The notes: a model not told the origin generated them from the sequence alone. 64,000 bases of DNA from Gemmatimonadota bacterium (GCA_021324635.1 JAJPIS010000070.1:7061-71060), one strand, 5' to 3'. Shown: positions 11,241 to 64,000, numbered from the stretch's first letter. Numbers and translations: made by a program.

Positions 11241-11405
11241 TGCCACCCTGACCGGGGCGGGTCGTACCCCCGGGCCGGCGCTTGCGACCCTCCGGCACCG
11301 CCTCTACATCTCTCGCCCCGAACACCGCCTCCGCGCCCGCGCGAGCGGACGCGATCGAGGCTCGGCGGCGCACGCCTGGTGCGCGCATCCCGAGAGGAGC
11401 CTGTC

Positions 11406-28973: not shown

Positions 28974-29760
28974 GGGGGCATCGTGATGCCCCGTAGGGGC
29001 GGCATTCATGCCGCCCGCGACCCGCATCCCGCACCAATGCCGGGGCGGCATTCATGCCGCCCGCGACCCGCATCCCGCACGAATGCCTGGCCCGGCGTGT
29101 CACGCGGGCCGCGTCCCGCGGCCACCAAAGGAAGCGTTATTGTTGATGGTGCCAGGGGCAATCGCTTCGCGATTGCCCCTGGCACCGGGAACCGCAACGA
29201 CCGGAGCGGGATGGTGGGCCCGTCGCGGTGGGGCCGGGGCGCGTGTGGGTGCGTGGATGCCCGCGGCACCGGGAACGGCGGGCGGGAATGCATGGTGTCG
29301 CCGCGGGCGCACGTCGCCGTGCGCGCCCCGCGTAGGGGCGGCATTCATGCCGCCCGCGATTCGCATCCCACACGGATGCCCGGCCCGGCATTCATGCCGC
29401 CCGCGACCCGCATCCCACACGGATGCCCGGCCCGGCATTCATGCCGCCCGCGATTCGCATCCCGCACCAATGCCTGGGCGGCCGTGGGACGCGACCGGCG
29501 TGCGGCATCCCGCGCCACGCGGGGCGTCGTATATGCCGAACGGCAACGGCGAATGACGTGAATGCCGGGCCGGACATTGGTGCGAAATGATGGCAGCGGG
29601 CGGCATGAATGCCGCCCCTACGGGGGTGCGTTGGCCGGCATTTCGCACCACGGGGGTGCGTTGGCCGGCATTGCGCACCAATGCCGGGCGGCATCCGCAC
29701 CGGTGCCGGTGATGCTGGGCGGCATCCCCACCGATGCCGGCGGCCGGCATGTCATGCCGC
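28974..29760. repeat. REP/BIME-like array of GGCAT..ATGCC mini-hairpins in both orientations
   Basis: 46-bp units GGGGCGGCATTCATGCCGCCCGCGACCCGCATCCCGCACCAATGCC occur x2 (28996-29087) and x3 (about 29335-29475). An inverted copy GGGCGGCATGAATGCCGCCCCTACG is at 29598-29622. A 30-bp unit occurs x2 at 29621-29680. A 15-bp-stem hairpin GCCAGGGGCAATCGC-ttc-GCGATTGCCCCTGGC is at 29151-29183. The array fills the convergent gap between the MFS gene and the sigma gene. Confidence 0.85.
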
Positions 29761-31023: not shown

Positions 31024-31084
31024 GGCGTCGTGAAGGCGGGCGCCGGGGCCGACGGAGGTCGGCCCCGGTGGGTTTCGCCGTCGG

Positions 31085-31513
31085 TCAGCGGCGCTCGGGC
31101 TGGGCCGCCCGCTGCTGGAGCTCCGGGAAGCCGTCCGCGGCCTGCCGGACATCCGTCGGGAAGTCGGCCATCTCGAATACCTGGCGAACCTCGATCACCT
31201 CGTTGTCCGACGCCGGGCACCGGCTCGCCCACTCGATCGCCTCCTCCCTGGACTTCACCTGAATCATCCAGTACCCGCCGATAACTTCCTTCGCTTCCGG
31301 GAAGGGTCCGTCCATCACCTTGGGCTTGCCGCCGGCGAATGAGACCCGGGCCCCCATCGAGGGCGGCCGCAGTCCGTCGAGCGCGAGCAGGACGCCGGCC
31401 TTCTGGAGCGATTCGTTGTACTTCATCATTGCCGAGACCGCCTTGGCGTCCGGCATCCGGTCCGGGGCGGCGGATTCGTACCCCTTGGGGATCATGAGCA
31501 TCATGAATCGCAT
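31085..31513 (-). CDS. YCII/DGPF-domain protein
   Basis: MRFMMLMIPKGYES...KYNESLQKAGVLLALDGLRP...MDGPFPEAKEVIGGYWMIQVKSREEAIEWASRCP. Only the last 142 codons of track ORF 31085..32416 are credible. Confidence 0.8.
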   Translation of the reverse strand: MRFMMLMIPKGYESAAPDRMPDAKAVSAMMKYNESLQKAGVLLALDGLRPPSMGARVSFAGGKPKVMDGPFPEAKEVIGGYWMIQVKSREEAIEWASRCPASDNEVIEVRQVFEMADFPTDVRQAADGFPELQQRAAQPERR

Positions 31514-49294: not shown

Positions 49295-52147
49295 TCAGTA
49301 CCCCAGTGTGAGGCGCAGGACGAAGTAGCGCGGGAGCGGGATCACCGACGGCATGGTGGCCGGGTTGAGTGCCGACCGGTCGACCTCCGGGTCCGGTCCG
49401 CTGTAGCGCGTCGACAGCCAGAGATTGCGCGCGAGGAGCGACAGCGCGGCCGTCCCCGTGTGGAGCCGGTGCGCGAGGGCGGGGGTCGCGGCGTACGTCA
49501 CCGACAGCTCGCGAAGCCGGAGAAACGATGCATCCTGTGTCGGCCCCACGTACCCTTGGCGGCCCACGACCGCGGCCTGTGCCTGCTCGGCGAGCGGCGC
49601 GCGCGGGTCGTTCGCTCCGCGGGCCGTGGCGACCGCTTGGAAGGCGGCCGCCTGGTCGATCAGGCGGTTGCCTCCCTGGTAGTCGAGCAGCCCACCGAAT
49701 CGGAGATGTCCACCGAGCACGCCGAGCGCGGATCGCAGCGAGAGTCCACGCGTGGGCAACGAGGTGCCCTGGTCGGCCAAGGGTCCGAGTGTCACCTCGT
49801 TGGGCTCGATGACGCCATCGTGGTTCGCGTCGGCGTACGAGAGCGTCGGCTCCCAGATCGAGTACAGCGCGTGTCCCACCGTGGCGAGGAAGACGGGCGA
49901 GGCGCCGTACGTCTCCTGCGGCAGCCCGGGCGCGAGCGAGACGAGCCGGTTCTGGTTCGCCCAGCCGCCGAGCCCGACATCCCACGATGCGCCGCCGGTG
50001 CGAATCACCGTCGCATCGGCCTCGATCTCGACGCCGCGGTTCCGGATCGCGGCGTCGTTCAGCTCGATGGTCGCGGCTACCCCACCGGTCGAGACCTGGG
50101 CCGGAAAGAGCGCGTCGGTGGTCGTCTTGTCGTATACACTGGCGCTGAGCGTCACCCGGTCGCGGATCGACGCGTCGGCGCCCGCCTCGTACTCCCGTAT
50201 GTGCTCGGGGCGTGGCAGTGGGCCGCCTCGTCCGATCCCGTTCCGGCCGTCGATCAGGTTGGGAACGAAGATGTTGAACACCGGGGGCAGATCACCCGTC
50301 TCCCCGATGGCGGCGTGGAGCCGGAGCGGGTTGGAGCGGTGGCGGATCGCCAACCACGAGATGGCAGCGCGTCCGTACGTGGCCTCGGGCGCACCCTTCT
50401 CGCCGTAGGCGTCGCGGCGCACCGCTCCGGTCACTGACAGCCGATCGAGGAACGTCACCGCTTCCTCGAGAAACGCGCCACGCCGTTGTGCGTTTTCGCC
50501 CGACGTGTACATCTGCTGGACGGTGCCCGTCGGCGGGTTGACGCCCGACAACAGGTTGAGAGCCACGATCGACTGGCTCGCGTAGCCGATCTCGCGGTAC
50601 GCCCCTCCGACCGTGGTGACCGCCGAGAGCAGGCCCGGAACCTCGGCCGTGCCGGAGACCGCGAGGCTCGCCGAATAGCTGTGGTCGGCGATCCGGTCGC
50701 GCGTGAACATGCCCGGAAGGGCGTCGAACGGGTCGTCGGCGGGGTCGAGGTACTGCTCGTTGCGTTCGCGACCCTTGTCGACCCCGCCGTTCGCGTGCGT
50801 CGACAACCAGCTCACCGGCGTCCAGATCCAACTGGCGCCCGCGTCGTATCGCTCGACGCGATCGGCCGACTCGTTTGCGAACAGATATCGTGGCCGTGCC
50901 GGCCCGCCGGCCCATCCGTCGTTGCTGGCCGCCGTCCCGCTCCCGGACGCGACATCGGTGGCCAGCAGCGACTCGTTCGCGGCGCCCTGGCCGCCACCGA
51001 TCGCGCTACCCGTGATCGTCACCTCGCCGAGTGCCGGGAGGGCGGTCGTCACGGAGGCGTGTCCATTCGTGCGGTCGAGCCGATTCGGCCACCGGATCGC
51101 GTTGGGCGGCGCATGGCCGTCCTGCGCCGCATAGAGCTGCGCCTCCGGGGTCGGCATGGCGAGGATGCCGCGCTCGTTCTGGCGCTCGCCGCTCACGAGA
51201 TAGCGCACCGGCCCGGTCCCGCCGTCGAGCTGGAGATTCGCCGCATCGCGGTTGCCGCCGGTGAGCGGCGACGTCCGGGTGGTAGCGAGCGGCGAGAAGT
51301 GCGTGAGGCTATCGAGGACGCACGTCCCAGCCGCGCGCGGCACCGGGCCACACCGGACCTGCGTCGTGCCGCCCGTCGCGTGGCCCCAGGCCATCCAGCT
51401 CTCGTACTGATTCGTGCTCGGGACGCCGAGCGCGCCGACCTCGGACGAGAACGCCCAGTGGAGCGCGTCGGTGCTCGGGCGGCGTGTCGTTACGAGCACG
51501 ACCCCGTTCGCGGCATCGAGCCCGTACTCCGTCGTCGCCGCCGGCCCGGTCAGCACATCGATCCGGGCGATGTCCCACGGGCTCAGCTCGTCCAGCGTCC
51601 CGATGCGCGACGGGCCGACCGGGTGGCTCTGCGCGGGATTCGCGGGATCGGCGGCGCCGCCGCGGTCGGACGCGACACGGACGCCGTCGACGTACACCGC
51701 CGGATCGGTGGTGGCGAAGATGCTCCCCACGCCGCGCACGATGATCCGTGCGCCACTGCCGCTCTGCGCGCCGGCGCTCTGGACATCGGTGCTGTGCAGG
51801 CGCCCCGAGAGCAGGTCCGTGAGCTGAAAGACCGGCGCGCCGGGTGCGACACTGTCGGCGAGAATCGCCGCCCCGGATGACGTCGTGCCCTCGTCCGTCC
51901 GCGTGGGTACCCTGCTTTCGCCCGCCGAGTCGGTGCCAGGCCGAGTCGCGGGCGCGTCGGCGGCAGGAGTCCGGCCGCCGCCATCCCCCTGGGCCTGGGC
52001 GGTCGACGTGAGCAGGAGCAGCCCGACCGAAAGGGCGGTTGGGTAACGCCAGGAGCGGTGAATCACGGAAAGATTTGACGGGGAGGGAGAGCCGAGTGGT
52101 CGCGAGCGAACGGCGGGGCTCGCGCAGCCCGGGTGGCGCGGGGGCAT
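49295..52147 (-). CDS. TonB-dependent receptor (no STN extension)
   Basis: Plug: ARIIVRGVGSIFATTDPAVYVDGVRV, IARIDVLTGPAATTEYGLDAANGVVLVTTRR. The barrel ends YFVLRLTLGY. Signal YPTALSVGLLLLTSTAQAQ. The GTG at 52066 is an alternative start. Confidence 0.85.
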   Translation of the reverse strand: MPPRHPGCASPAVRSRPLGSPSPSNLSVIHRSWRYPTALSVGLLLLTSTAQAQGDGGGRTPAADAPATRPGTDSAGESRVPTRTDEGTTSSGAAILADSVAPGAPVFQLTDLLSGRLHSTDVQSAGAQSGSGARIIVRGVGSIFATTDPAVYVDGVRVASDRGGAADPANPAQSHPVGPSRIGTLDELSPWDIARIDVLTGPAATTEYGLDAANGVVLVTTRRPSTDALHWAFSSEVGALGVPSTNQYESWMAWGHATGGTTQVRCGPVPRAAGTCVLDSLTHFSPLATTRTSPLTGGNRDAANLQLDGGTGPVRYLVSGERQNERGILAMPTPEAQLYAAQDGHAPPNAIRWPNRLDRTNGHASVTTALPALGEVTITGSAIGGGQGAANESLLATDVASGSGTAASNDGWAGGPARPRYLFANESADRVERYDAGASWIWTPVSWLSTHANGGVDKGRERNEQYLDPADDPFDALPGMFTRDRIADHSYSASLAVSGTAEVPGLLSAVTTVGGAYREIGYASQSIVALNLLSGVNPPTGTVQQMYTSGENAQRRGAFLEEAVTFLDRLSVTGAVRRDAYGEKGAPEATYGRAAISWLAIRHRSNPLRLHAAIGETGDLPPVFNIFVPNLIDGRNGIGRGGPLPRPEHIREYEAGADASIRDRVTLSASVYDKTTTDALFPAQVSTGGVAATIELNDAAIRNRGVEIEADATVIRTGGASWDVGLGGWANQNRLVSLAPGLPQETYGASPVFLATVGHALYSIWEPTLSYADANHDGVIEPNEVTLGPLADQGTSLPTRGLSLRSALGVLGGHLRFGGLLDYQGGNRLIDQAAAFQAVATARGANDPRAPLAEQAQAAVVGRQGYVGPTQDASFLRLRELSVTYAATPALAHRLHTGTAALSLLARNLWLSTRYSGPDPEVDRSALNPATMPSVIPLPRYFVLRLTLGY

Positions 52148-52526: not shown

Positions 52527-53681
52527 ATGATCATCATCACCAAGCCCGACATTGCCCCCTCCGCCTTCGACGCCATCCTCGAGCGGATCGAGCGGGCCGG
52601 GCTCGTCGCTCACGTGAGCCGCGGCACCGAGCGGATCGTCATCGGGTGCGTGGGTGACGAGCGCGCGCTTGAAGACGTGCCGCTCGCCGCGCTGCCGGGC
52701 GTCGATCGTGTCATGCCCGTGCTCAAGCCCTACCGGCTCGCCTCGCGAGAGACCCGCGCCGCGCCCGAGGCGACGACCGAAGTCGTCCTTGGCGTCGAGA
52801 GTGGTGCGGACCCCTGCGTCGTGGGCGGGCGCGCCCTCGCCATCATTGCGGGGCCGTGTTCCGTCGAGGGGCGTGAGATGCTCCACGACACCGCCGGCGC
52901 CGTTCGTGGCGCGGGTGCGTCGGCGCTCCGGGGTGGTGCGTACAAGCCGCGCACCTCGCCGTACGCCTTCCAGGGGATGGGCGCGCCCGGACTCGAGCTG
53001 CTGGCCGACGTTCGTGCGAGCACCGGGCTGCCGGTCGTGAGTGAAGTGATGGATCCGCGGCAAGTCGAGTCGATGGCGGGCGTCGTCGACTGCCTGCAAG
53101 TGGGCGCGCGCAACATGCAAAACTTCGCCCTGCTCGCCGAAGTCGGGACCGCGCGCGTTCCCGTGCTCCTCAAGCGCGGACTGTCGGCGACCGTGCACGA
53201 GCTGCTGATGGCTGCCGAGTACGTGCTCTCCCGCGGCAACCCCCACGTGATCCTCTGCGAGCGCGGTATCCGCACCTTCGAGACCGCCACCCGGAACACC
53301 CTCGACGTCGCGGCGATCCCCGTGCTGCGGGCCGAAACCCACCTGCCCGTGCTCGTCGACCCGAGCCACGCGGGAGGGAAAGCGGCGCTCGTGGCGCCAC
53401 TCGCGTACGCCGCCATCGCCGCCGGTGCCGACGGGTTGATCGTCGAAGTGCACCCCGATCCGTCGGCCGCTCGATCGGACGGCGAGCAGAGCCTCACCTT
53501 CGAGCAGTTCCGGGCGATGATGGTGCACCTCGGCGCATTCGCCGCCGCCGCCGGGCGGACGATGGGGCACGTGGGCGCCGGCTCGGCGGCGCGCTCCGGC
53601 GTCGTGGCCGGACGTGGTGCGCTCGGGGTGGCGCTTCCCGCCCGGAGCGGGTCGCGGACGGGCGGAGGCGCGGCCGCGTGA
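52527..53681 (+). CDS. 3-deoxy-7-phosphoheptulonate (DAHP) synthase, type I-beta, with N-terminal ferredoxin-like regulatory domain
   Basis: MIIITKPD...VIGCVGDE...[11 protein letters not shown], then [65 protein letters not shown]. Collinear with the Thermotoga-type enzyme. Confidence 0.9.
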
Positions 53682-53724
53682 CCGTCTCGCGCGCCGGGCG
53701 GCCGCGCACCGGCTCGGTCGTGCG

Positions 53725-54312
53725 GTGACCTCTGAGGGCGGCTATCGTCCGCCCGGCCGCCTCCGCGTCGCGTACCAGGGGGAGCCGGGCGCCTTCAGCG
53801 AAGTGGCGATCGCGCAGCTCTGGGGTCGCGCGGGGGACGGCGTGTCACGGCACGACTTCCCGGACGTCGTCCGCGCCGTCGTGGACGGGGCGGCCGACGC
53901 CGGCGTGCTCCCCGTGTGGAACGCCGTCGTCGGGCGGATCGCGTCGAGCGTGGCCGCGCTGCGTGAAACGCGGGCGCTCGCCGTGGTGGGGGAGACCGAA
54001 GTCGCGGTCCGGCTGCAACTGCTCGCGCTCCCCGGCGTGCCGGCGTCGGTGCTCTGCCGCGTCGCCAGCCATCCCGTGGCGCTCGGGCAGTGTGGGCGCT
54101 ATCTGGCCCGGCATCCCGGTCTTGCGCCGGTGCTCGCGCACGACACCGCCGGCGCGGCCCGCGCGGTCGCGGAGTCCGGCGATCCCCGGAGCGCCGCGAT
54201 CGCCGGCCCGGCCGCGGCCGAGCGTTACGGGCTCGTCGTCCTGGCTGACCGGATCGCCGACCGGTCCGACAATCGGACCCGGTTCGTCGCCGTCGTGCGT
54301 CGCACCGGATAG
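53725..54312 (+). CDS. pheA: prephenate dehydratase catalytic (PDT) domain only, no ACT domain
   Basis: LRVAYQGEPGAFSE, GVLPVWNAVVGRI, ASHPVALGQC, NRTRFVAV, then a stop where the ACT domain normally begins. Confidence 0.8.
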   Translation: MTSEGGYRPPGRLRVAYQGEPGAFSEVAIAQLWGRAGDGVSRHDFPDVVRAVVDGAADAGVLPVWNAVVGRIASSVAALRETRALAVVGETEVAVRLQLLALPGVPASVLCRVASHPVALGQCGRYLARHPGLAPVLAHDTAGAARAVAESGDPRSAAIAGPAAAERYGLVVLADRIADRSDNRTRFVAVVRRTG

Positions 54313-54325
54313 GGGCGCTCGCGCC

Positions 54326-54580
54326 TCAGGCAGCCGGCGGCGGATCGCGCCGACTCGGGTGCGGCAGGATCAGCACGCAGCGCTCCCGGCGGGCCCGCGG
54401 GTTCCTGACGGGGGCGGTGACCCATCCGCCCATGTCCGGTCGTCGGGGGACCGGCGCATAGGCCGTGTGTCGGACGATCGTGTCCGCGACATCGACCCAT
54501 CCCCATTCCTGTCCCGGAATGAGGACGCGGAGCGACGGATCGAGACCTTCGAGGGCGGCGTAGAGCTGAGCGATAGTCAC
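54326..54580 (-). CDS. small hypothetical protein
   Basis: MTIAQLYAALEGLDPSLRVLIPGQEWGWVDVADTIVRH... The first half has ordinary composition and the second half is Arg/Pro-rich. No family recognised. Confidence 0.35.
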   Translation of the reverse strand: MTIAQLYAALEGLDPSLRVLIPGQEWGWVDVADTIVRHTAYAPVPRRPDMGGWVTAPVRNPRARRERCVLILPHPSRRDPPPAA

Positions 54581-54602
54581 GGGTAGAGCCGAAGGGGCAG
54601 GA

Positions 54603-54640
54603 GGAGTCGTCGGGAGTCGTCGGGAGTCGTCGGGAGTCGG
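54603..54640. repeat. 10-bp tandem repeat GGAGTCGTCG x3 plus a partial copy
   Basis: Read directly: 54603-54612, 54613-54622, 54623-54632, then ggagtcgg. Intergenic. Confidence 0.9.
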
Positions 54641-54758
54641 CCCACGCGGGCCGCTACTTACTAACTCTCCGCCGACGGCCTCTTCCCCTCGCTCGGCGCC
54701 GACCCGCGGGGTCGCCTGGCGCCGGGTCGACCCCCGATCAACACCTGGTCAGCCCCGG

Positions 54759-55022
54759 TCAGCGCTCGCGGTCGGACTCCGAGAGCAGCCGCGCCGGCGG
54801 CACCTTGAGAGCCCGCGCGAGCTTCTCGATCGTGTCGAGTGACGGGTTGGCGAGACCGCGTTCGACCAGGCTGATGAACGTCCGGTGCATGCCGACGGCG
54901 TGCGCGAGCGACTCCTGCGAGTACGACGTCTGCGTCTTGCGGAGATGGGCGACCGTCCGTCCGAAGCGCACGCGCAGCGGTGGCATGGTGCAATGGTGCA
55001 CCCGCCCCGGTGCATCGGCCAC
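54759..55022 (-). CDS. XRE-family HTH transcriptional regulator
   Basis: FGRTVAHLRKTQTSYSQESLAHAVGMHRTFISLVERGLANPSLDTIEKLARAL. The start is the GTG at 55022 or the ATG at 54986. Confidence 0.8.
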   Translation of the reverse strand: MADAPGRVHHCTMPPLRVRFGRTVAHLRKTQTSYSQESLAHAVGMHRTFISLVERGLANPSLDTIEKLARALKVPPARLLSESDRER

Positions 55023-55034
55023 AGCATATATAGC

Positions 55035-55102
55035 GCCACTATATACAGTGCATCACACGCATCGGCGCGCGCGGCGGCGACGCTTGCACTATATGTAGTG
55101 CA
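55035..55102. promoter_or_regulatory. two TGCACT-N6-AGTGCA-type palindromes in the divergent XRE / sigma promoter region
   Basis: Site 1 at 55035-55052 is GCCACTATATACAGTGCA (reverse complement TGCACTGTATATAGTGGC). Site 2 at 55085-55102 is TGCACTATATGTAGTGCA. Centres are 50 bp apart in the only AT-rich patch of this region. Confidence 0.45.
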
Positions 55103-55405
55103 GCGTGAGATTGGCGCCCATGTGGTGCGCGGGGGCGACGGGGCGCTGCTCGGGGCGAGTTCGCCGTCGTCCGGCGGCTGGCCGGTCAGCCGGTGACGGC
55201 ACGCTGACGCGTCGGCGTGAGTGTCGGGTCCATGATCGCTCCCCCGCGGCGGACGCGGCGTCTTCCTCGTGGCGGCATTGGCGAGCGGCCGGTCGCTCCC
55301 TGGCCTGGTGCGGCGGGCTCGGCGCGCGGGCGTCGTGCCCGGCGGGCGCGGGGGGCCGACGGCGGTCCGCTCGGCGCGGGGTTGCCGGCCGGTGTCCTGG
55401 TCTGG

Positions 55406-56170
55406 ATGGACCGGGAGTGGGCCTCCGTCGTGGCTGAGCTGGCGCGGTGGGTCGCCGAGGGAGCGGGAGGCGGTGCGGGGGAGGGGGGTCGGGGCGGCGG
55501 GGGCGGCGGGGGCGACACCAGGCGCGACGCGGTGGACGACGCCGCGCTCCTCGCGCGGATCATGGCGGGCGACGAGCGCGCGCTCGAGGCGCTCTTCCTC
55601 GCGCATGCCAGTCGGCTGTATCGCGTGGCCTATCCGTATCTCCAGTCCGGGTGGGCGGCGCGGGCGGTCGTGCAGGACATCTTCACCAGCCTGTGGAACC
55701 GGCGTGCGGATCTCGACGTGCACGGCTCGGTGACGGTGTATCTGACCGCCGCCACGCGCAACCGCGCGATGTCGGTGCTCCGGGAGGAGATCCGCCGGCG
55801 GGAGCGCGACGGGCGATGGGCACAGTGGGCGGCGGCCGAGTGGGAGGCGGGAGACGCCGGCCGGGTGACGGCGGGCGAGGCAGGGTGGGCCGGACAGCGG
55901 GCTGGCGGTGCCGCGTCGAGCGCCGGCGCTGCCATGCGGTCCGCGATCGAGCGCGCGCTCGCCGAGCTCCCCGAGCGTCAGCGGCTCGTTTTCCGGCTCC
56001 GGGTGGAGCGACAGCTGACGAGCGCCGAGGTCCGCGACGCGATCGGCGCCGTGTCGGTCAAAGCCGTCGAGCTCCTGTATGCGCGGGCCGTGAAGTCGCT
56101 GCGGGCGCGCCTCATGCCCGACCGTGGGAACGATCCCGAGCGCTCGTCCGACCCCGAGCGCGAGGGATAG
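55406..56170 (+). CDS. ECF sigma factor (FecI-like)
   Basis: ALEALFLAHASRLYRVAYPYL...VQDIFTSLWNRR (region 2), LPERQRLVFRLRVERQLTSAEVRDAIGAVSVKAVELLYARAVKSLR (region 4). Start uncertain; the GTG at 55532 is also possible. Confidence 0.8.
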   Translation: MDREWASVVAELARWVAEGAGGGAGEGGRGGGGGGGDTRRDAVDDAALLARIMAGDERALEALFLAHASRLYRVAYPYLQSGWAARAVVQDIFTSLWNRRADLDVHGSVTVYLTAATRNRAMSVLREEIRRRERDGRWAQWAAAEWEAGDAGRVTAGEAGWAGQRAGGAASSAGAAMRSAIERALAELPERQRLVFRLRVERQLTSAEVRDAIGAVSVKAVELLYARAVKSLRARLMPDRGNDPERSSDPEREG

Positions 56171-56232
56171 ATGACGGGCGGCGCGGGCGCCGTCCGTGAG
56201 GGGTCGCCGCCTTCGGCGGCGACTACTGAGAT

Positions 56233-57465
56233 GTGAGCGACACGCCCGCACCGTCCCGGCGCCCCGAGGCGTCGCCCGAGCGATCGAGCGCGGTCCCGAG
56301 CGTCGGGGAGCCGCTGTCGGGGGTCGACGTGGATGCGTTGCTCGCGGCCTTCCTCGCCGGGACGTTGCCGGCGGCCGACCGCGGGCATTTCGAGCGGTGG
56401 CTCGACGCGGAGCCCGGTCGGCGGGCGATCGTCGCGGCGCTGCGGGGCGGGGGCGTGGAGCGGGCGGGTGCGGGTGAGGCGGGGGTGCGCACGCCTGCCG
56501 TGCTGCCCGGTCCCATCGACGTGCACGCATGGTGGCGAGCGGTCGGCGCCTCCCTGGTGAGTGCAGGTGATGGGGCGGCTGTGCGGGATGCACCGCGTCG
56601 CGCGCCGCTGGCGGTCGTGCGGTCGGAGCGGGCGGTGGCCGCTGAGCGACCGCGGTCCACGCCGGTCCTCCGGCGGTGGCACGGCCGGCCGGCGCGGCTG
56701 GGGCGCCCGGTCTGGTGGGCTGCGGCGGCGGCAGTCGTCGTCGGGGCGGCGTGGCTCGAGGCACGCGTGGGGCCGTGGGCCGGTCCGGGGTCAGCGCACG
56801 GCGCGGCGGTGCGCACGTACGTCACCGCGCGCGGTGAGCGGGCGGTGCTGACGCTCGAGGGGGCGCGGGTCGTGCTCGCGCCGGAGAGCGAGCTCCGAGT
56901 GGGGGCGGACTATGGCGATCGGGTGCGCGCCGTGACTCTTCAGGGCCACGCGTTTTTCGACGTCGTGCACGACTCCGCTCGGCCCTTTCGGGTTCGCACG
57001 CAGTCGCTCGTGACCGAGGACATGGGGACGCGGTTCGACATTCGCGCGTATCCGGGCGGCGCGGCCGCGCAGGTGATCGTCGCGGACGGCAGCGTCGCCG
57101 TCGCTCGCCCTGCGGGGGGTGCGGTGGAGCGGCTGGTTGGTGCCACGATCGTGCGGCGTGGATCCCGGATGATGCTCGACACCTCGGGGGCGATGCGTGT
57201 CGTGAGCGGGCTCGCCGTCGAGCGGGACATCGCGTGGGCGGACGGGCGATTGGCGTTCGTGGACGTGCCGCTCGGCGATGTGGTGCGTGAGCTGGGCCGA
57301 TGGTACGACGTCGACTGGCGGCTTGCGGATCCCGACCTGCGGACGCGTCGGCTGACGGCGACGTTCGCGGGCGATCCGGTGGAGGATGTCGTGCACGCGA
57401 TCGAGCGTGCGTTGGGTGTGCGAGCGCGGTGGAGTGGGCGGACCGTCACCCTCTTTCCGCCCTAG
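56233..57465 (+). CDS. FecR-family anti-sigma / signal transducer
   Basis: N-terminal anti-sigma helix LLAAFLAGTLPAADRGHFERWL, TM segment VWWAAAAAVVVGAAWL, and a FecR domain (VLTLEGARVVLAPESELRV...HAFFDVVHDSARPFRVRT...TRFDIRAY). Confidence 0.8.
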   Translation: MSDTPAPSRRPEASPERSSAVPSVGEPLSGVDVDALLAAFLAGTLPAADRGHFERWLDAEPGRRAIVAALRGGGVERAGAGEAGVRTPAVLPGPIDVHAWWRAVGASLVSAGDGAAVRDAPRRAPLAVVRSERAVAAERPRSTPVLRRWHGRPARLGRPVWWAAAAAVVVGAAWLEARVGPWAGPGSAHGAAVRTYVTARGERAVLTLEGARVVLAPESELRVGADYGDRVRAVTLQGHAFFDVVHDSARPFRVRTQSLVTEDMGTRFDIRAYPGGAAAQVIVADGSVAVARPAGGAVERLVGATIVRRGSRMMLDTSGAMRVVSGLAVERDIAWADGRLAFVDVPLGDVVRELGRWYDVDWRLADPDLRTRRLTATFAGDPVEDVVHAIERALGVRARWSGRTVTLFPP

Positions 57466-57692
57466 GCAGCGGTAGCGCGCGGCCGTCGACCTGGCCCGGC
57501 CGGTATCGGACACGCCGCGCGCGTTCACGAGACCAATTCACGATCAACCGCCCACGGGAGTGGGGGGGAGCTATGCGTCATCTCTGTGGTCGCGGTGATG
57601 CCGACCGGGGTGCGTGCGAGCGCGCGGGTCGGCGTGGCGAGGGGGAGCAAGAGGCGGGTCGGGCGGCGCCGGCGGGGCGGGCGGTGTCGCTG

Positions 57693-60467
57693 ATGGCACG
57701 GTGGGCGGTCGTCGTGCTCCTCGAGTTGCTCGGGGCGGTGTACGGCGGCGTGCTCGTCGCGCAGACGCGGGGAGGGGTGGCGGGTGGCGAGCAGGTGACG
57801 CTCGCCGAGCGGGGCCCGCGATTCTACTGGTGGGCGCCGGACGGCGGCGGGGCGAGCGGCCGGGCGGGCCGGCCGGTGCGGGTCGAAGCGCGGGGCGTGG
57901 CCGTGCTCCGGGCGCGGATCGGTGTCGCGCTCGAGGACGCGACGCTCCCCGCCGCGCTCTCCGCGATCGGTGCGCAGGCGGGGCTGCGGCTCGTGTACGA
58001 CCCGTCCATCCTCCCGCGGGACGCTCGCGTCTCGCTCCGGGCGGAGGACATCACCGTTGCCGCCGCGCTCACCCACGTGCTCCTCGACGCGAACGTCGAT
58101 GTCGAGCTGGGTCCGGGTTCGATCGCCACCCTGACCGCGCGCCGTGGCAGCGCGGCCGCGCGTCCGCCGGCGACCGGGTCCGTCGCGGGCCACGTGACCG
58201 ACGTCAGGACCGGCCGCCCGGTGCCGTACGCTACCGTGCAGCTCGTCGGGACCGGCCGCGGCGCCTCGGCGACCGACAGCGGCACCTATCGGATCGCCAA
58301 CGTGCCGCCGGGGGCCTACACCCTCGAAGCGCGCGCCCTCGGCTACACGCCCGCTCGCCAGCCGGTGACCGTGTCCGCCGACCAGGTCACGGTCAGCGAC
58401 ATCGCCATCGAACGGTCCGCGAGCCAGATGGACCAGGTCGTGGTGACGGGGACCGTTGCCCCAACCGCCGTGCGGGCGGTTTCCACGCCGATCACGGTCG
58501 TGACCGCGTCTGAGATCCGCGATGAGCATCCGCGGACGATTGACCAGATCTTCCGTGAGGCCGTTCCCAGCGGCGTCGCCTGGGACCCCACCTCGAATCC
58601 CGAGAGTACACCGATCACCGTGCGAGGGGCGAGCACCCTCAACGCGGCTTCGGGGAGCGTCAAGATCTATCTCGACGGCGTCGAGGTCAGCGACCGAAGC
58701 TTTGCCGCGATCGACCCCAACAGCATCGACCATATCGAAGTGGTGCGTGGCCCGCAGGCTGGGACGCTCTACGGGTCGGACGCGATCGGAGGCGTCATGC
58801 AGGTCTTCACGAAGCGTGGGGACCCGGGGCTCAAAGTTCCTCTGATCGAGGCGTCGGCGGCGGCCGGGACGGCCCAGAGCCCGTACCGGGGGTACAGCGG
58901 GGCGATGCGCGAGGAATTCAGCGCATCGGTGCGAGGGGGAACGCCCGACATCGGCTACAATCTCGGCGCCGGCTATCAGCACACAGATGCCTGGGTGCTC
59001 GAGGGGCAGGCGGCGATCCCTAGCCTGTACGGCGGGATGCGATTCACGCAGGGGCCGCTTTCGATCGACCTGACGGCGCGCTACTACAGCCAACAGACCC
59101 CGCAGGCGGGTGACCCGCGGCTGGCCGCCACCGGGGATCCGTACTATTCCAAGCCATTCTACGTCCAGCAGACGTCGACCGAGGAGACATACGGCGCCCA
59201 CATCGTGTACGCGGCAAGTGACCGCTGGCGGCATACCGTCACGATCGGCGTCGACCGGTTCAGTGATGACGGACGCCAGCTTCAGCGTCGCTTCACGACG
59301 CCGGCCGATACCGAGCTATTCGTCGTTGGAGAGCAAGAGCCCAAGGCATCGCTCGGGTACAACACGTCTTTCACGATGCCGCTGTCCAGGAGTATCGGAA
59401 GCACGGTCACCGCCGGCGTGGACCACTACACCCTTACGACAACCGACTTCTTCACGACAGGCGCTCTGGCGTCGGCCGGCACCATTCCGTTCGATCCGGC
59501 GGTTCCGCCTTCGATCGCACGGAACGTGACGCAGAACACCGGTTATTTCGGGCAACTGCAGCTCGCGGTCGGTGGCGCGCTGTTCCTCACAGGTGGATTG
59601 CGTGCAGAGCAGAACTCGAACTTCGGCCGAGCGCTCGGCACTCCACTCTCCCCGCGGTTTGGGGTCGCATACGTGCGCACGTTCGGCGCGACGACACTAA
59701 AGACTCGGGGCTCGTACGGTGAAGCGATTCATCCGCCCGACCCGAGCGAGAAGGACGCCATCGCGTTCGCGACAAACCTCCAGCTTGCGAACCCCCGGCT
59801 CGGTCCCGAACGGCAGCGTGGGTGGGACGCGGGGGTGGACATCGCGGTCGGGTCCAGGGCGACATTCGGCGCTACGTACTACGATCAGGTCGCGGCGGAC
59901 CTGATCTCGACGGTGCCCGTCAGTGCGCAGAATCAGAACTATCAATTCCAGAACGTCGGTCGCGTGCACAATACTGGGATCGAGCTGGAGGGGAGCTACT
60001 CGGCCGGTCCGGTGATCCTTCGGGGCCAGTACGCATACACGAGGAGCCGGGTCAATTCCGTCGGTGCCAACTACACCGGAGATCTGCGGGTTGGGGACCA
60101 GGCCTGGCTGGTACCTCATTCGACGGCCGGCGCATCCGCGACCGTGAATGTGCTGCGGCGGACGAACGTGACGCTCGGGCTCAGCGCCGTCAGCAGTTGG
60201 ACGTACTACGACCTGTTCACCGAGTTCAAGTGCTTCGCTGGCTCGGCTGTCGGCTCGAGCGCGTGCCCGACCACCACGCGAGGCTTCCTCGTGCGATACC
60301 CCGGGTTCGCGAAGGTACGCCTCGGCGTGGACCAGGAGATCACTTCGCGGCTCTCTGCCTTTGTCGCGGTCGACAACCTCACGGACAACCAGAACTATGA
60401 GCTGATCAACACGTCCCCGGTGCTCGGTCGGATCACGATGCTCGGCATCAGAGTGCGGGCAAGATGA
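57693..60467 (+). CDS. TonB-dependent receptor of the signalling type (STN domain + carboxypeptidase-regulatory-like domain + plug + barrel)
   Basis: STN: LPAALSAIGAQAGLRLVYDPSIL. CarbopepD_reg: GSVAGHVTDVRTGRPVPYATVQLVGTGRGASATDSGTYRIANVPPGAYTLEARALGY. Plug: VVVTG...ITVVTASEI, ITVRGASTLN, IDHIEVVRGPQAGTLYGSDAIGGVMQVFTK. Ends MLGIRVRAR. Confidence 0.85.
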   Translation: MARWAVVVLLELLGAVYGGVLVAQTRGGVAGGEQVTLAERGPRFYWWAPDGGGASGRAGRPVRVEARGVAVLRARIGVALEDATLPAALSAIGAQAGLRLVYDPSILPRDARVSLRAEDITVAAALTHVLLDANVDVELGPGSIATLTARRGSAAARPPATGSVAGHVTDVRTGRPVPYATVQLVGTGRGASATDSGTYRIANVPPGAYTLEARALGYTPARQPVTVSADQVTVSDIAIERSASQMDQVVVTGTVAPTAVRAVSTPITVVTASEIRDEHPRTIDQIFREAVPSGVAWDPTSNPESTPITVRGASTLNAASGSVKIYLDGVEVSDRSFAAIDPNSIDHIEVVRGPQAGTLYGSDAIGGVMQVFTKRGDPGLKVPLIEASAAAGTAQSPYRGYSGAMREEFSASVRGGTPDIGYNLGAGYQHTDAWVLEGQAAIPSLYGGMRFTQGPLSIDLTARYYSQQTPQAGDPRLAATGDPYYSKPFYVQQTSTEETYGAHIVYAASDRWRHTVTIGVDRFSDDGRQLQRRFTTPADTELFVVGEQEPKASLGYNTSFTMPLSRSIGSTVTAGVDHYTLTTTDFFTTGALASAGTIPFDPAVPPSIARNVTQNTGYFGQLQLAVGGALFLTGGLRAEQNSNFGRALGTPLSPRFGVAYVRTFGATTLKTRGSYGEAIHPPDPSEKDAIAFATNLQLANPRLGPERQRGWDAGVDIAVGSRATFGATYYDQVAADLISTVPVSAQNQNYQFQNVGRVHNTGIELEGSYSAGPVILRGQYAYTRSRVNSVGANYTGDLRVGDQAWLVPHSTAGASATVNVLRRTNVTLGLSAVSSWTYYDLFTEFKCFAGSAVGSSACPTTTRGFLVRYPGFAKVRLGVDQEITSRLSAFVAVDNLTDNQNYELINTSPVLGRITMLGIRVRAR

Positions 60468-62725
60468 CCGGGGCGCCGGCTGCCCCTTCGAGCACGATGA
60501 TGGGGTGCGTGATGCACTGTTGCCGTCCGGCGTCCCTGTTGCTCACCGCTGGACTACTCCTCGCGTCGTGGGCTCATGGGCAACCGACGAGCCGGGAAGG
60601 GACGAGGATGTCAGTTGCGGCGCACGAAGGGGAGCGGAGCGTTCTATCCCGGCGACACAGGCTGGATCTGGACGACATTCTCACCAACCAGACAATCGGT
60701 GATGCTACGATGTCGCCGGCCGGCGACCTGGCGGCAATCGTGATTCAGCGAGCTGAGACGGCAGCCGTCGAACGGTACGGGTGGGTCGATGGTCCGTGGA
60801 ATCGCGCCGATGTCTGGCTCGTGCCTCGGCGCGGCCGACTCAGGAACATCACCAACGGCGTGCGCGATGGCACCTGGCACTGGCAGCCGACCTGGTCGCC
60901 GGATGGCCGGTACCTCGCGATCCTGACGACGCGCGTGACCAACAACGTTGGAATCGAGGTGTGGGACGAACGAGCGGGCACGCTTCGCCGCGTCGGACCG
61001 CCCGGCGTGGACCTGGACGCCCACCTGGAGGCCTGGGGCCAGCCGATGGAGTGGGTCGACTCGACGACGTTGCTGGCGGCGTTCGTCCCGGCGGGGACGA
61101 TTCCGCTCTACTACGCGTACGGTCCAAATCAACGGATCCGGCGGGATAGCGCCTGGGCGCGTACCGAACACGGCGCGCAGGCGTCGGTGAGCTTGCTCGA
61201 AGGTGGGGTCGAAACCCCGGCGGCTGCGCGCCCCCAGGGCTCACTGGCGCTGATCGATGTGCGCACCGGGCGGGTGACGATCGTCGCCCAGGCAAACATC
61301 CGCGAGACCGTCCTGTCCCCGGACCATCGGCAGGTCGCGCTCATCGCCGACGACGGCAATGACGTCATGGGACCAGGAGAAGGGCCACGCTGGCCGGAAG
61401 ACGGCTCGTTCATCCGATTCTTCATGCACCGACGGCTGGGGCTCGCGCAACTGCAACCCGCTGGTCAGGTCCGCTGGATCGAGGGACTGCATGATCCTTA
61501 CCTGAGCCCCTCCGGCGGTGCGTGGGCGGTCGATGGGTCGAAGTTTGTTGTGGCAACGCACTCGGGCGCGAGCCAGGCGACTCCCCTGGAGCATGTGGTC
61601 GTCGACGCCCACGGCATGGTCGGCGCGCTCACTCCGGACAGCTCCTTCCCTCGCGACACGCCAGTCTCGCCGCCGCCGGCGCAACGATCGGAGCTGGTGC
61701 TTGCCGTCGAGTCGCCGCGGACAGGGTTTGCGCTGTACACCTCCGAGCCAGCGGACGGATCGCTGATATGGACCAGGGATACGTCGAACGGTGCCCCCCA
61801 CGTTCGGATGCGCCTCAATTCGCACCTGGGCAAGGTCGAGGACGACGTCGGGCAGGAGCGGCTGATTCACTATCGAGGGGCCGACGGCGCCCGTTACGCA
61901 GGTCAGGTACTCCTCCCCGCCGGGTATGTATCAGGCGTCCGCTACCCGACCATCGTGTGGCCGTACCCCGGGCACATCGTGCCGGACTCCTTGCCCCGAC
62001 GAGCCTCCGGCAAGCCTCACTCTGCCTTCTATCCGATGATGGATCCGCACCTGTGGTCCACGCGCGGGTACGTCGTGCTCCAACCGTCGATCCCTCCGTC
62101 AAATGGAGATCCCGTAGTGTCGGTCGCGGGATACATCGACCCGGCGATCGACTCGCTGGTCGCGATGGGCGTCACAGATTCTTCGCGGCTCGCCCTGGTC
62201 GGCCATAGTCACGGTGCCATCCTGGTCTATGGTCTGATCACCATGAGCACGCGGTATCGAGCGGCAATCGCGATCGCGGGGTGGAGCGACATCCTGTCGT
62301 ACTACGCAGCCTTCATGGCGAGCTACTGCTACTGCCGCGCCGACTTTCCCAACGAGTGGGTGCCGACGGGGCTGACGCAGTTCGAGGCGAGCAATGCAAC
62401 GACCCCCTTGAGCCATTCGCTGCGGATCGGGGTGACGCCGTGGGAAGACCCGCTCCGGTGGCATCGCAACAATCCGATCGAGCATTTCGACCGGGTGACC
62501 ACACCGCTCATGATCGTCAAGGCGGACAATGACACGTTCTATATGAGCGATGGAGATATCGCGTTCCAGGCGTTGAGCAGGCTGGGGAAGCGGGTGCGCT
62601 ACGTACGCTACTGGGGCGAGGGCCACACGCTCTCCTCTCCGGCGAACCTGCGCGATTACTGGAGCCGCGCACGCGTCTGGCTGGACGACCTGCTTCATTC
62701 CAGCTTGGGGTCGGCGTCGCGCTGA
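60464..62725 (+). CDS. S9-family (prolyl-oligopeptidase-like) serine peptidase with N-terminal propeller; candidate lasso-peptide isopeptidase by context
   Basis: WSPDGRYLAIL propeller repeats. Catalytic motifs LALVGHSHGAIL (GxSxG), MIVKADNDTFY and WGEGHTL. Signal-like ASLLLTAGLLLASWAHGQ. ATGA overlap with the receptor stop. Confidence 0.8.
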   Translation: MTGAPAAPSSTMMGCVMHCCRPASLLLTAGLLLASWAHGQPTSREGTRMSVAAHEGERSVLSRRHRLDLDDILTNQTIGDATMSPAGDLAAIVIQRAETAAVERYGWVDGPWNRADVWLVPRRGRLRNITNGVRDGTWHWQPTWSPDGRYLAILTTRVTNNVGIEVWDERAGTLRRVGPPGVDLDAHLEAWGQPMEWVDSTTLLAAFVPAGTIPLYYAYGPNQRIRRDSAWARTEHGAQASVSLLEGGVETPAAARPQGSLALIDVRTGRVTIVAQANIRETVLSPDHRQVALIADDGNDVMGPGEGPRWPEDGSFIRFFMHRRLGLAQLQPAGQVRWIEGLHDPYLSPSGGAWAVDGSKFVVATHSGASQATPLEHVVVDAHGMVGALTPDSSFPRDTPVSPPPAQRSELVLAVESPRTGFALYTSEPADGSLIWTRDTSNGAPHVRMRLNSHLGKVEDDVGQERLIHYRGADGARYAGQVLLPAGYVSGVRYPTIVWPYPGHIVPDSLPRRASGKPHSAFYPMMDPHLWSTRGYVVLQPSIPPSNGDPVVSVAGYIDPAIDSLVAMGVTDSSRLALVGHSHGAILVYGLITMSTRYRAAIAIAGWSDILSYYAAFMASYCYCRADFPNEWVPTGLTQFEASNATTPLSHSLRIGVTPWEDPLRWHRNNPIEHFDRVTTPLMIVKADNDTFYMSDGDIAFQALSRLGKRVRYVRYWGEGHTLSSPANLRDYWSRARVWLDDLLHSSLGSASR

Positions 62726-62754
62726 ATCGGACGGCCGCGGAGGGTCGGGGAATG

Positions 62755-62787
62755 CGACGAGGGCCGGGATGCTCCCGGCCCTCGTCG
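62755..62787. terminator. bidirectional intrinsic terminator between the peptidase gene (+) and the peptide genes (-)
   Basis: CGACGAGGGCCGGGA-tgc-TCCCGGCCCTCGTCG (perfect 15-bp stem) followed by TTCTTC. Confidence 0.65.
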
Positions 62788-62801
62788 TTCTTCGGGACCG
62801 T

Positions 62802-62936
62802 TCAGAGCGCGAAGCCGACGCTGCCCTCGGGCATGGCCAGCCCGAGCGCCTCGTGCACGCGCGGGCCCGTCACCCTGGTCGTGCGAACGGCGTCCGCCGT
62901 CTGCGTCACTGCCGGGGTCTCATAGGGCCGTTTCAT
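62802..62936 (-). CDS. candidate lasso-peptide precursor A2 (44 aa)
   Basis: MKRPYETPAVTQTADAVRTTRVTGPRVHEALGLAMPEGSVGFAL. GAGGAGG RBS lies upstream of the ATG at 62936. Embedded in track ORF 62802..63041. Confidence 0.6.
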   Translation of the reverse strand: MKRPYETPAVTQTADAVRTTRVTGPRVHEALGLAMPEGSVGFAL

Positions 62937-63108
62937 CGTGCCTCCTCGCCGCATTCGCGGCATGATTGTCAGCAACGTGAGTACGATTGCAGCAAGTGCG
63001 GGGCGGCGGTCACCGGGCCGCGACGCGTCGATCTGACTCACGGTGGAGGTGTAGGGTCAGGCGATCAACCGTGAGGGTGCTCACGCCCGGCCCTCGCCCC
63101 CGAGAGCC

Positions 63109-63243
63109 TCAGAGCGAGTACCCGAGACTTCCGACCGCCTCGCCCCGTCCAAAGCTCTCTGCCACCTTCTGACCGATCTGCGACGTGACGGCGACGACGG
63201 GCGCCGACGATGTCACTGCGGGTGCCTCGTAACGTGTCTTCAT
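63109..63243 (-). CDS. candidate lasso-peptide precursor A1 (44 aa)
   Basis: MKTRYEAPAVTSSAPVVAVTSQIGQKVAESFGRGEAVGSLGYSL. GGGAGGA RBS; the ATG overlaps the stop of the upstream cyclase-like gene (ATGA). Embedded in track ORF 63109..63471. Confidence 0.6.
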   Translation of the reverse strand: MKTRYEAPAVTSSAPVVAVTSQIGQKVAESFGRGEAVGSLGYSL

Positions 63244-64000
63244 ACGGTCCTCCCTGTGGCCGCGTCGAAGCGGCCGGTCAAGTGTGTCCCCTGCTGGTGG
63301 TGCAAATCGCTGTTGCCCTGCTCGCGTCGCGTCTCGGTGACCGGTCGACCAGAGCGCACGTGCAGCCACGTCTCGACGGCGAGTGTATAGATGGCCGCCG
63401 AAACGAGCTCTTCCGCGCCTGTACGGCATGCCTCGTCGATACCGGCGCGAAGTCTCACCGGGTCGATGCATCCCAACTGGGCCAGGAGCGGATCGTCCAG
63501 GATCCGGGCGATCGTAGGTCGCTCGCGGATCAGAGCTTGATGAACGAAGCCGAGGTTTCCACCCTTACCGACCCGTGTCCGCACCGGCTCCGGCAGGATA
63601 CCCCGCATCGCTTCGCGCAGAATCCACTTGCGGGCATGCGGCTGCACACACATCTCCGGCGGCAGTCGAAGCCCGAGTTCGACCAGGGGCCGGTAGAGGA
63701 ACGGGTGTCGCACATCGAGGCCTTCCAGCAGGTCATGGCGGCGGAGCCCGAGTGGGATCGACCGCATCTGCTCCTGCACGAGAGCGGCGTACTTCAGCCC
63801 GCGCGGACCTGCGTAGCTATCGTCGGCCGACGTCCCGACGATGTGTGCCGACTCGGCGGCGGACCGGCGAATCCAGGGCGGCAGGCTGGCACCTGGTACA
63901 AGACGCCGACGGAGGGTGGCCGGGAGGAGTGGGAGCAAGGCATTCCGGTAGGCCAGGTTCCAGAACGAGACGCGACCGATCGCGGCGCGTCTCAGCATCT
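63240..64000 (-). CDS. asparagine-synthetase-B-like C-terminal domain (lasso cyclase-like); the gene continues beyond the right edge
   Basis: ...LEGLDVRHPFLYRPLVELGLRLPPEMCVQPHARKWILREAMRGILPEPVRTRVGKG... is the conserved C-terminal AsnB-type region (DxRxPFLDxxLvE....P......KxiLReA..g.LP..i..R.KkG). Confidence 0.65.
   Translation of the reverse strand, partial: MLRRAAIGRVSFWNLAYRNALLPLLPATLRRRLVPGASLPPWIRRSAAESAHIVGTSADDSYAGPRGLKYAALVQEQMRSIPLGLRRHDLLEGLDVRHPFLYRPLVELGLRLPPEMCVQPHARKWILREAMRGILPEPVRTRVGKGGNLGFVHQALIRERPTIARILDDPLLAQLGCIDPVRLRAGIDEACRTGAEELVSAAIYTLAVETWLHVRSGRPVTETRREQGNSDLHHQQGTHLTGRFDAATGRTV

Follow-up and report, generated by a model that had tools for sequence, protein, structure and literature searches.

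A lasso-peptide operon facing an ECF sigma, FecR, TonB receptor and S9 hydrolase operon in Gemmatimonadota: a putative circuit for making, sensing, re-importing and cutting a peptide

Why should an operon for lasso peptides run head-on into an operon for a sigma factor, an anti-sigma factor, an outer-membrane receptor and a secreted hydrolase? The question is raised by positions 54,759 to 64,000 of a 64,000-nucleotide stretch of DNA from a Gemmatimonadota bacterium (GCA_021324635.1, JAJPIS010000070.1:7061-71060), referred to here as the window, the right end of which holds one whole arm and part of the second arm of a two-operon system. The role of lasso clusters that include an isopeptidase gene is still called enigmatic (PMC9266682). 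With a probability that we put at roughly 70%, the answer is that the lasso operon faces an extracytoplasmic function (ECF) sigma–FecR–receptor–S9 operon that senses its peptides, re-imports them and cuts them, the likeliest site of the cut being the isopeptide bond.

The region from 54.7 to 64 kb lies in a window of 71% guanine-plus-cytosine (GC) content, and its open reading frames (ORFs) were matched to Pfam and NCBIfam models. All genes named in an earlier interpretation of the window alone (hereafter the sequence-only reading) are present between 54759 and 64000, as are the ATGA overlap of the receptor stop with the S9 start, provided that the first ATG of the peptidase is used, and the 15-bp hairpin between the two arms. 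Two metagenome contigs, L001 (91 kb, ENA) and L002 (Logan), match window positions 53109–64000 at 99.93% identity and extend past 64000; B1, B2 and the full-length cyclase gene C were read from these contigs, outside the window, and gene calls on four public metagenome contigs, L001 and L002 among them, include the exact A1 peptide. Read across the window edge in this way, the operon has the order B1-B2-C-A1-A2 and is, by its predicted products, a complete class II lasso-peptide operon consisting of a recognition element for ribosomally synthesised and post-translationally modified peptides (RRE; B1), a leader protease (B2), a cyclase (C) and two precursors (A1 and A2); its sequence can be taken from L001 7214–10442. 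The protease and the RRE, which the sequence-only reading had not seen within the window, lie directly beyond its edge on both contigs.

B2 is a protein of 163 amino acids (aa) with a Transglut_core3 domain (L001 7558–8049) that scores 86.9 bits on the lasso_biosyn_B2 model NF033537 (cut-off 33) and 82 bits on Pfam Transglut_core3; it matched no solved structure. B1 is a 114-aa PqqD protein (Pfam PqqD 57.6 bits, cut-off 23.4) that remains under the cut-off of 70 on NF033530 with 46.9 bits, and its closest relatives among solved structures are the lasso RREs TbiB1 (E 1.8e-6) and TfuB1. The asparagine-synthetase-B-like ORF at the window edge had been proposed to be a lasso cyclase, and the full-length gene bears this out: its N-terminus (VSFFLLLAH...) has no Cys2, the N-terminal Cys nucleophile of AsnB, and the lasso-cyclase NCBIfam models outscore AsnB (133 and 130 bits vs 107), all of them below full-length cut-offs and with an actinobacterial-type model as the best NCBIfam match. 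Among nine cyclases of the clade the N-terminal consensus is MxFFxC and the SGGLDSS ATP-binding motif is kept, Leu alone varying. A profile of these cyclases run against solved structures matched AsnB-type enzymes only and no solved lasso cyclase.

The precursors A1 and A2 are identical at 19 of their 44 residues and both are preceded by GGAGG-like ribosome-binding sites, that of A2 lying 5 nt before the start codon; the start of A1 overlaps the cyclase stop in a second ATGA. Both leaders read Y5-x-x-P8-x-V10-x3-A14-x5-T20-x21, an RRE-type YxxPx[L/V]...T(-2) signature in which the Gly of the canonical YxxPxLx3Gx5Tx leader is replaced by Ala, and in both Glu29 corresponds to core position 8. 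An alternative start at Gly24, the only Gly nearby, would leave an impossible ring of six residues, below any known lasso ring size. The register was examined in 106 distinct precursors from related loci, all encoded after the cyclase gene, where each locus has one to four of them, with positions counted from YxxP in the 105 that possess the leader motif. In 83 of these Thr is found at -2, as expected, and in 71 Asp or Glu stands exactly at core position 8, compared with 4–19 when the register is shifted by one to three residues; A1 and A2 fit this clade-wide register. In the 83 precursors with Thr at -2 the predicted core residue 1 is Gly (27), Ala (14), Ser (12), Asn (6), Met (5), Ile (5), Leu (4), Phe (3), Thr (2), Gln (2), Val (2) or Lys (1). 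About half of all precursors (44–53 of 106) end in G-S-[VLI]-G-[FY]-x-[LVI], including A1 (63109–63132), A2 (62802–62825) and those of L004, L017, L064, L084 and L087–L131, while rings and loops vary; this C-terminal motif may form the steric-lock region, a recognition handle or both.

That the two small ORFs are genuine is borne out by dozens of related loci in which they are conserved after the cyclase. The sequence-only reading had regarded this gene order as new; the order itself is confirmed, its novelty in part is not, since B1..B2-C-A together with an S9 gene has already been tabulated for Acidobacteriota (PMC12670498, Table S2).

The facing operon is tied to the biosynthetic one well beyond this genome. 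GTDB species representatives were scanned with a three-sequence S9 alignment, a five-sequence alignment being too divergent as a seed, which yielded 80 loci; metagenomes were scanned with a cyclase alignment, which yielded 509 relatives (E <= 1e-3), the best 80 of which were analysed. Close relatives of the window S9 are very few. The closest of them, P0002 (46% identical), has a receptor fragment on one side and, on the other, a convergent small ORF followed by an Asn-synthetase-like fragment. P0004 (35% identical) resides in locus L004, where two XRE genes precede an ECF, FecR, receptor, SusD-like and S9 series that converges on two 45-aa precursors, C, B2, B1, an AraC-like gene and a PqqD-like gene; in L006 the series ECF, FecR, STN-receptor and S9 (P0005) converges on C. 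In ten of the 80 genomic loci C and B2, often with B1, are convergent right after the S9. Their hosts are six Gemmatimonadales/Gemmatimonadaceae metagenome-assembled genomes (MAGs), one 'Acidobacteria bacterium' MAG, two Pyrinomonadaceae and one Acidiferrales, in agreement with the earlier impression that the genomic background is not alphaproteobacterial. The receptor gene is directly upstream of the S9 in all six Gemmatimonadota loci, and FecR and ECF genes accompany it in four.

The metagenome loci tell the same story from the side of the cyclase. Where the sequence runs 1.5 kb or more past the cyclase, a convergent S9 is found in 31 of 50 loci, and where the flank is 5 kb or longer, a strongly matching TonB receptor is found in 20 of 22; all of 51 loci have B2 upstream of the cyclase, and 48 of the 51 have B1 there. 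Random adjacency would, by our own rough estimate, amount to about 1–2% or less, and the linkage of the two arms is not due to chance. Because the facing-operon proteins at related loci are only 30–45% identical to those of the window, the linkage represents conserved synteny and not recent shared ancestry. From B1 through the TonB receptor (window ~57.7–64.0 kb; L001 7001–15000) the GC content is 64–68%, as against 73–77% in both flanks, which include the FecR/ECF genes on one side and AraC-like genes on the other. This suggests that the B1-to-receptor module moves as a unit and was maybe laterally acquired. The window locus belongs to a large uncharacterised lasso family of soil Gemmatimonadota and Acidobacteriota.

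The position taken by the S9 is itself informative. Defined as the first large gene convergent on the precursors, this slot was classified in 48 metagenome loci: it is filled by an S9 in 32, by a protein that joins a PD40 propeller to Amidohydro_1 (~1140 aa at full length) in four, by a Peptidase_S8 subtilase (1098 aa) in one, by the receptor itself in six and by an unclassified gene in five. Non-S9 slot genes are exemplified by the amidohydrolase of L091 (6588–10007, minus strand) and the subtilase of L094 (2619–5915, minus strand), and occur also in L102, L125 and L163. The gap between receptor and slot gene is 20 bp for the amidohydrolase of L091 and 13 bp for the subtilase of L094, and the peptides encoded at the amidohydrolase and subtilase loci are of the same family, ending in ...GSVGFHL. 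That one position is filled by unrelated hydrolase folds argues that a secreted or periplasmic amide hydrolase after the receptor is what selection keeps. In a separate sub-group (L133, L143, L149, L153, L155, L160 and L166) no hydrolase gene separates the precursors from the receptor, which itself converges on them, and the peptides are of a different, shorter type (MHSTIKQGYVAP...GEPVAGYHF).

How might such a system work? B1 would bind the YxxPx[L/V] leader and B2 would remove it by cutting two residues after the conserved Thr, whereupon C would join Gln1 or Val1 to Glu8 and close an eight-residue ring around the tail. The predicted products are 23-residue lassos of ~2334.20 Da (A1) and ~2289.19 Da (A2). 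The peptide would then leave the cell and bind its dedicated TonB receptor from outside; the receptor would signal via FecR to the ECF sigma factor, raising expression of receptor and hydrolase, and would import the peptide into the periplasm. There the S9 would cut it, most plausibly by opening the ring at the isopeptide bond, and thereby end the signal or free a cargo carried by the lasso. Export, receptor specificity, signalling and the bond cut by the hydrolase are modelled by analogy with astexin-type clusters and FecIRA signalling (PMC9266682).

The receptor consists of a signal peptide, a weak STN-like N-terminal extension, CarboxypepD_reg, Plug and a beta-barrel, its likelier start being 57693, at the signal-peptide-like sequence MARWAVVVLLELLGAVYG. 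It falls short of the SusC/RagA model TIGR04056 (123.6 bits, cut-off 368), and the window lacks a SusD gene, with weak SusD-like genes at L004, L097, L127 and L139. The architecture of the hydrolase is in keeping with such a scheme: in the long (753-aa) S9 ORF the N-terminus, ...RPASLLLTAGLLLASWAHG/Q, is signal-peptide-like, the triad columns Ser (GHSHG), Asp and His are invariant, the Ser being residue 534 in P0001 numbering and about 582 of the 753-aa ORF, and the domains are Pfam PD40 (weak) and Peptidase_S9. The predicted fold, a beta-propeller plus an alpha/beta-hydrolase, is also that of SpI-IsoP and AtxE2, and, by analogy, genomic context alone supports an isopeptidase-like role for the enzyme. 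The coordinates of all features are collected in Table 1.

Table 1. Features of the two convergent operons at the right end of the window
Feature	Position	Strand	Evidence and remarks
XRE/Cro-C1-type helix-turn-helix (HTH) regulator	54759..55022	-	Pfam HTH_3 E 4.2e-13; divergent from ECF sigma gene
ECF-type sigma-70 factor	55217..56170	+	Pfam Sigma70_r2 and r4_2; NCBIfam TIGR02937 sigma70-ECF 55.2 bits (cut-off 42.9)
FecR-like anti-sigma / transmembrane signal transducer, 410 aa	56233..57465	+	Pfam FecR E 9.1e-14, FecR_C E 1.6e-12 (both above cut-offs)
TonB-dependent outer-membrane receptor	57693..60467 (ORF open from 57300)	+	Pfam barrel E 1.2e-31, Plug 7.4e-19, CarbopepD_reg_2 5.2e-18
Secreted S9 (prolyl-oligopeptidase-family) serine hydrolase, putative lasso-peptide hydrolase	60464..62725	+	Pfam Peptidase_S9 E 4.3e-15
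Perfect GC-rich hairpin between convergent operons	62755..62787	no strand	15-bp stem, 3-nt loop
Precursor A2, 44 aa	62802..62936	-	Leader MKRPYETPAVTQTADAVRTTR; predicted core VTGPRVHEALGLAMPEGSVGFAL, predicted Val1-Glu8 ring
Precursor A1, 44 aa	63109..63243	-	Leader MKTRYEAPAVTSSAPVVAVTS; predicted core QIGQKVAESFGRGEAVGSLGYSL, predicted Gln1-Glu8 ring
Lasso cyclase C, C-terminal 252 aa (full gene 652 aa)	63240..64000, continuing beyond edge	-	Pfam Asn_synthase E 1.2e-17

A number of findings weigh against the circuit of sensing, re-import and cutting. No lasso product has been observed so far, and the window cores start with Gln (A1) or Val (A2), not with Gly, Ala, Ser or Cys; experimental proof of Asn at core position 1 came only in 2025, with metanodin (PMC12670498). 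Six of the 48 classified loci have a receptor but no hydrolase in the slot. The STN label attached to the receptor in the sequence-only reading derives from a sub-threshold match (18.2 bits, cut-off 28.4; E 0.0022) located before CarboxypepD_reg, as expected; the L006 receptor carries a recorded STN match. A crude search of 21 FecR–receptor intergenic regions detected no shared ECF-type promoter, the best candidate (8 sequences) not standing out from shuffled controls (5–7). The remaining points concern the S9 itself, the model of which is of moderate confidence (predicted local distance difference test 63, predicted template-modelling (TM) score 0.64). On NF033523, the model of the AtxE2-family isopeptidases, the window S9 reaches 46.5 bits against a cut-off of 400, and with the C-terminal catalytic part only. 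Its lasso-linked relatives P0002, P0004 and P0005 score 85, 115 and 53 bits, and two S9 proteins without lasso context, P0006 (153 bits) and P0008 (177 bits), exceed the window S9. A phmmer search of the PDB with the S9 found neither AtxE2 nor SpI-IsoP at E <= 0.01. When a profile of the S9 lineage was run against solved structures, AtxE2 ranked seventh (62 bits), behind the S9 carboxypeptidase 8wt1 (101 bits), a chloroplast glutamyl endopeptidase and an acyl-peptide hydrolase, and SpI-IsoP scored 27.7 bits. In a Foldseek search with the model, S9 carboxypeptidases lead (TM 0.52–0.60), with 8wt1 at 0.60 and 7ep9 and 5yzo next, SpI-IsoP comes 12th and AtxE2 24th; this fold search does not separate isopeptidase from carboxypeptidase function.

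Membership of the window S9 in the AtxE2 family is therefore rejected, as it is far below the family cut-off and nearer to other S9 peptidases. The proposal that the locus follows the same logic of production, re-import and linearisation as the astexin-type clusters survives in its lasso cluster and its conserved facing operon; the S9 comes from a different lineage, so the shared logic is one of analogy. A neighbour-joining tree of the S9 proteins groups most of the lasso-linked ones loosely and places those of L004, L006, L045 and L071 elsewhere, with branches too long to interpret. An insertion with a Cys-Tyr-Cys motif (YYAAFMASYCYCRADFPNEW) in the hydrolase domain, at ~62150–62215 (P0001 residues ~565–585), is common to the window S9 and P0002, the relative nearest to it; the insertion is absent from P0004 and falls in a low-confidence part of the model.

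The carboxypeptidase matches feed the best surviving alternative, in which the two arms are linked and the S9 is a carboxypeptidase or endopeptidase that trims the GS[VL]G[FY]xL tail or cuts the long loop instead of opening the ring. That about half of the precursors share a C-terminal motif, that the slot can hold a subtilase, typically an endopeptidase, and that the predicted loops are long (~12 residues) would all suit such an enzyme. However, the motif is not tied to the S9, being found equally with S8 or amidohydrolase partners and at loci with no partner; AtxE2 and SpI-IsoP belong to the same S9 fold group, with similar TM scores among the fold matches; and should the lower plug be formed by the Phe/Tyr of the motif, a carboxypeptidase could reach two residues only. 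We consider tail trimming or loop cutting unlikely on balance.

A second alternative assigns the receptor and the hydrolase to defence or piracy, destroying the lasso peptides of competitors or an excess of the cell's own, so that the module would confer immunity and not recycling. TonB-dependent receptors are a known entry route of antimicrobial lasso peptides into their targets (references listed in PMC13352647), no ATP-binding cassette (ABC) immunity pump was found within 10 kb and the type of hydrolase is interchangeable among loci. Importing a toxin in order to destroy it would nevertheless be costly, self-recognition is a better fit both to the inducible FecR/ECF design and to a module so closely paired, one to one, with a biosynthetic operon, and the known peptides of isopeptidase-type clusters are mostly without antimicrobial activity (PMC9266682), all of which makes this explanation very improbable. 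Scarcely credible is the remaining notion of an ordinary peptide- or nutrient-uptake locus that is functionally unlinked to its lasso neighbour: S9 proteins and TonB receptors are indeed abundant in this genome, with a second of each in the window, and 69 of the 80 genomic S9-relative loci have no lasso genes, but the convergent layout recurs in two phyla at the identities and frequencies given above, and the B1-to-receptor module lies 6–9 GC points below both flanks as if moved as one unit.

The locus carries regulator genes besides that of the sigma factor. The XRE gene noted in the sequence-only reading is present (shorter in a metagenome call, 54759–54986, 75 aa), and homologues adjoin the ECF gene in L004, L091, L097, L127 and L128; AraC-like regulators were found in addition, on the biosynthetic arm. 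The start of the ECF sigma gene is uncertain, metagenome calls giving 254 or 312 aa. Exact-protein look-ups of the 753-aa S9 ORF and the 87-aa XRE ORF gave no match because gene callers chose other start codons. A second PqqD-like gene (L001 5879–6187) and, after it, a 263-aa AraC-like paralogue (L001 6201–6992) lie directly upstream of B1, and an AraC-type gene is also found on that side. The AraC-like gene was seen again in ~21 of the 80 metagenome loci and the second PqqD-like gene in ~11 metagenome loci; both recur in L004, the AraC-like gene also in L064 and L084. That these extra genes encode a tailoring enzyme for the conserved C-terminus was considered and rejected, as the 263-aa family is a paralogue of AraC-like regulators: it aligns with the neighbouring HTH_18 protein (hhalign probability 96%, E 3.7e-9) and weakly matches the AraC-family regulators VirS, CsvR and Rns. 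With a transcription factor beside a leader-binding fold, the pair might act as a regulator that senses the peptide.

The hairpin between the operons has arms of 15 nt each (62755–62769 and 62773–62787) that are 100% complementary, for which the chance expectation in that intergenic stretch is ~1e-5 by our own rough estimate. It has no T-run and is not a classical intrinsic terminator; it is probably a bidirectional transcript end or stabiliser. No ABC exporter was found within 10 kb of the locus. A ~555-aa protein with tetratricopeptide repeats and no clear family recurs near these clusters (L001 2781–4448, L009 1910–2920, L038 329–1336, L080 3726–4808 and about ten metagenome loci); it lies on the biosynthetic side in the window-type locus and adjoins the ECF gene in L009, L038 and L080. 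Elsewhere in the window are an ordinary S9 (11379–13529, plus strand; Pfam 148 bits) away from the lasso genes, a second TonB receptor (49295–52147, minus strand) and an ECF sigma fused to DUF6596 (29752–31152, minus strand), neither of the last two beside lasso genes; no transfer RNA or Rfam match was found in the window. The window genome itself had no match among the GTDB species representatives. The closest match there is a frameshifted fragment of an S9 C-terminus, 58% identical (L008 5399–6004; Gemmatimonadota MAG JBGQIW010000012.1), which has no lasso genes and no flanks in common with the window and is apparently a decayed remnant. Searches (tblastn) with other window ORFs against the related loci returned nothing useful.

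What could this arrangement mean? The replacement of the hydrolase by unrelated folds in sister loci argues that post-uptake hydrolysis is the selected function, and a circuit of making, sensing, re-importing and cutting a peptide would recur in two further phyla with different parts, namely a split B, another S9 lineage, a SusC-like receptor and other regulators. The slot enzymes are new hydrolase families to examine, and cyclases that possibly tolerate Gln, Val, Ile or Met at position 1 would be useful for lasso engineering. Taken together, and tentatively enough that we would sooner bet against it than for it, these observations may be read as one: the cyclases would accept almost any core residue 1, the GS[VLI]G[FY]x[LV] tag would act as lock, as handle for the TonB receptor or as both, breakdown after import would have evolved independently in at least three unrelated folds (S9, S8 subtilase and propeller-amidohydrolase), none of them orthologous to AtxE2, and the peptide would be a self-made, receptor-sensed signal or shuttle that is ended by hydrolysis.

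The ECF sigma factor, the FecR-type anti-sigma and the TonB receptor with an N-terminal extension are shared with FecIRA signalling and with the ECF/anti-sigma SusC/SusD loci of Bacteroidota, whereas here the presumed ligand is a self-made lasso in place of ferric citrate or a glycan, the STN match is sub-threshold and the window locus has no SusD. The biosynthetic arm resembles the split-B clusters of Actinobacteria and Firmicutes (fusilassin TfuB1/B2, TbiB1, lariatin, paeninodin), with which it shares the separate PqqD RRE and transglutaminase-like protease and the YxxPxLx3Gx5Tx leader. Those clusters usually have the precursor gene first and an ABC exporter, and are not known to possess a receptor, FecR or hydrolase arm; here, in contrast, the host has an outer membrane and the precursors come last.

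The proteobacterial isopeptidase-type clusters (astexins/AtxE2, sphingopyxin I/SpI-IsoP, caulosegnins, benenodin, rubrinodin and metanodin) are the closest in design. A 2022 review describes a nearly constant layout for all known isopeptidase clusters, in which the precursor gene is preceded by a GntR-like regulator and the isopeptidase gene is followed by a TonB transporter and a sigma/anti-sigma pair (PMC9266682), and a 2026 review places isopeptidase genes primarily in alpha-proteobacteria (PMC13352647). In both designs a lasso operon converges on an S9 beside a TonB receptor and a sigma/anti-sigma pair, there are several precursor copies and, as in the known isopeptidase-type clusters, no ABC exporter (PMC9266682). 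In contrast to the proteobacterial clusters, B is split here into B1 and B2 with an RRE-type YxxPxL leader, the order is B1-B2-C-A instead of A-C-B, the regulators are AraC-like and XRE instead of GntR, the S9 is of a different lineage, the receptor is SusC-like with CarboxypepD_reg and is accompanied by a SusD-like gene at some sister loci, and the hosts are Gemmatimonadota and Acidobacteriota.

The closest in gene order are three soil clusters of Acidobacteriota (364, 468 and 9882) tabulated by Negri et al. (2025), with the order B1-phosphotransferase-S9-B2-C-A(-A) and no product in E. coli (PMC12670498, Table S2). They share with the present locus a non-proteobacterial host, the B1..B2-C-A(-A) order and an S9 gene designated 'isopeptidase'. 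There, however, the S9, along with a phosphotransferase, is part of the biosynthetic operon and separates B1 from B2, whereas here it belongs to the opposing receptor operon and there is no kinase; the cluster tables of that study list no receptor or FecR genes, and 'TonB' is absent from its supplement. The 'precursor last' order and the S9 gene are thus already published, and the opposing receptor/FecR/ECF operon is not covered in those tables and supplement (PMC12670498). The general idea is not new: the locus is a version of the known isopeptidase-type design from a soil bacterium, one that the carriers of its relatives mark as probably Gemmatimonadota, and is built from non-orthologous parts. 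What it adds is the independent assembly of that design in Gemmatimonadota and Acidobacteriota, the interchangeable hydrolases, the variable core residue 1 and the conserved C-terminal motif.

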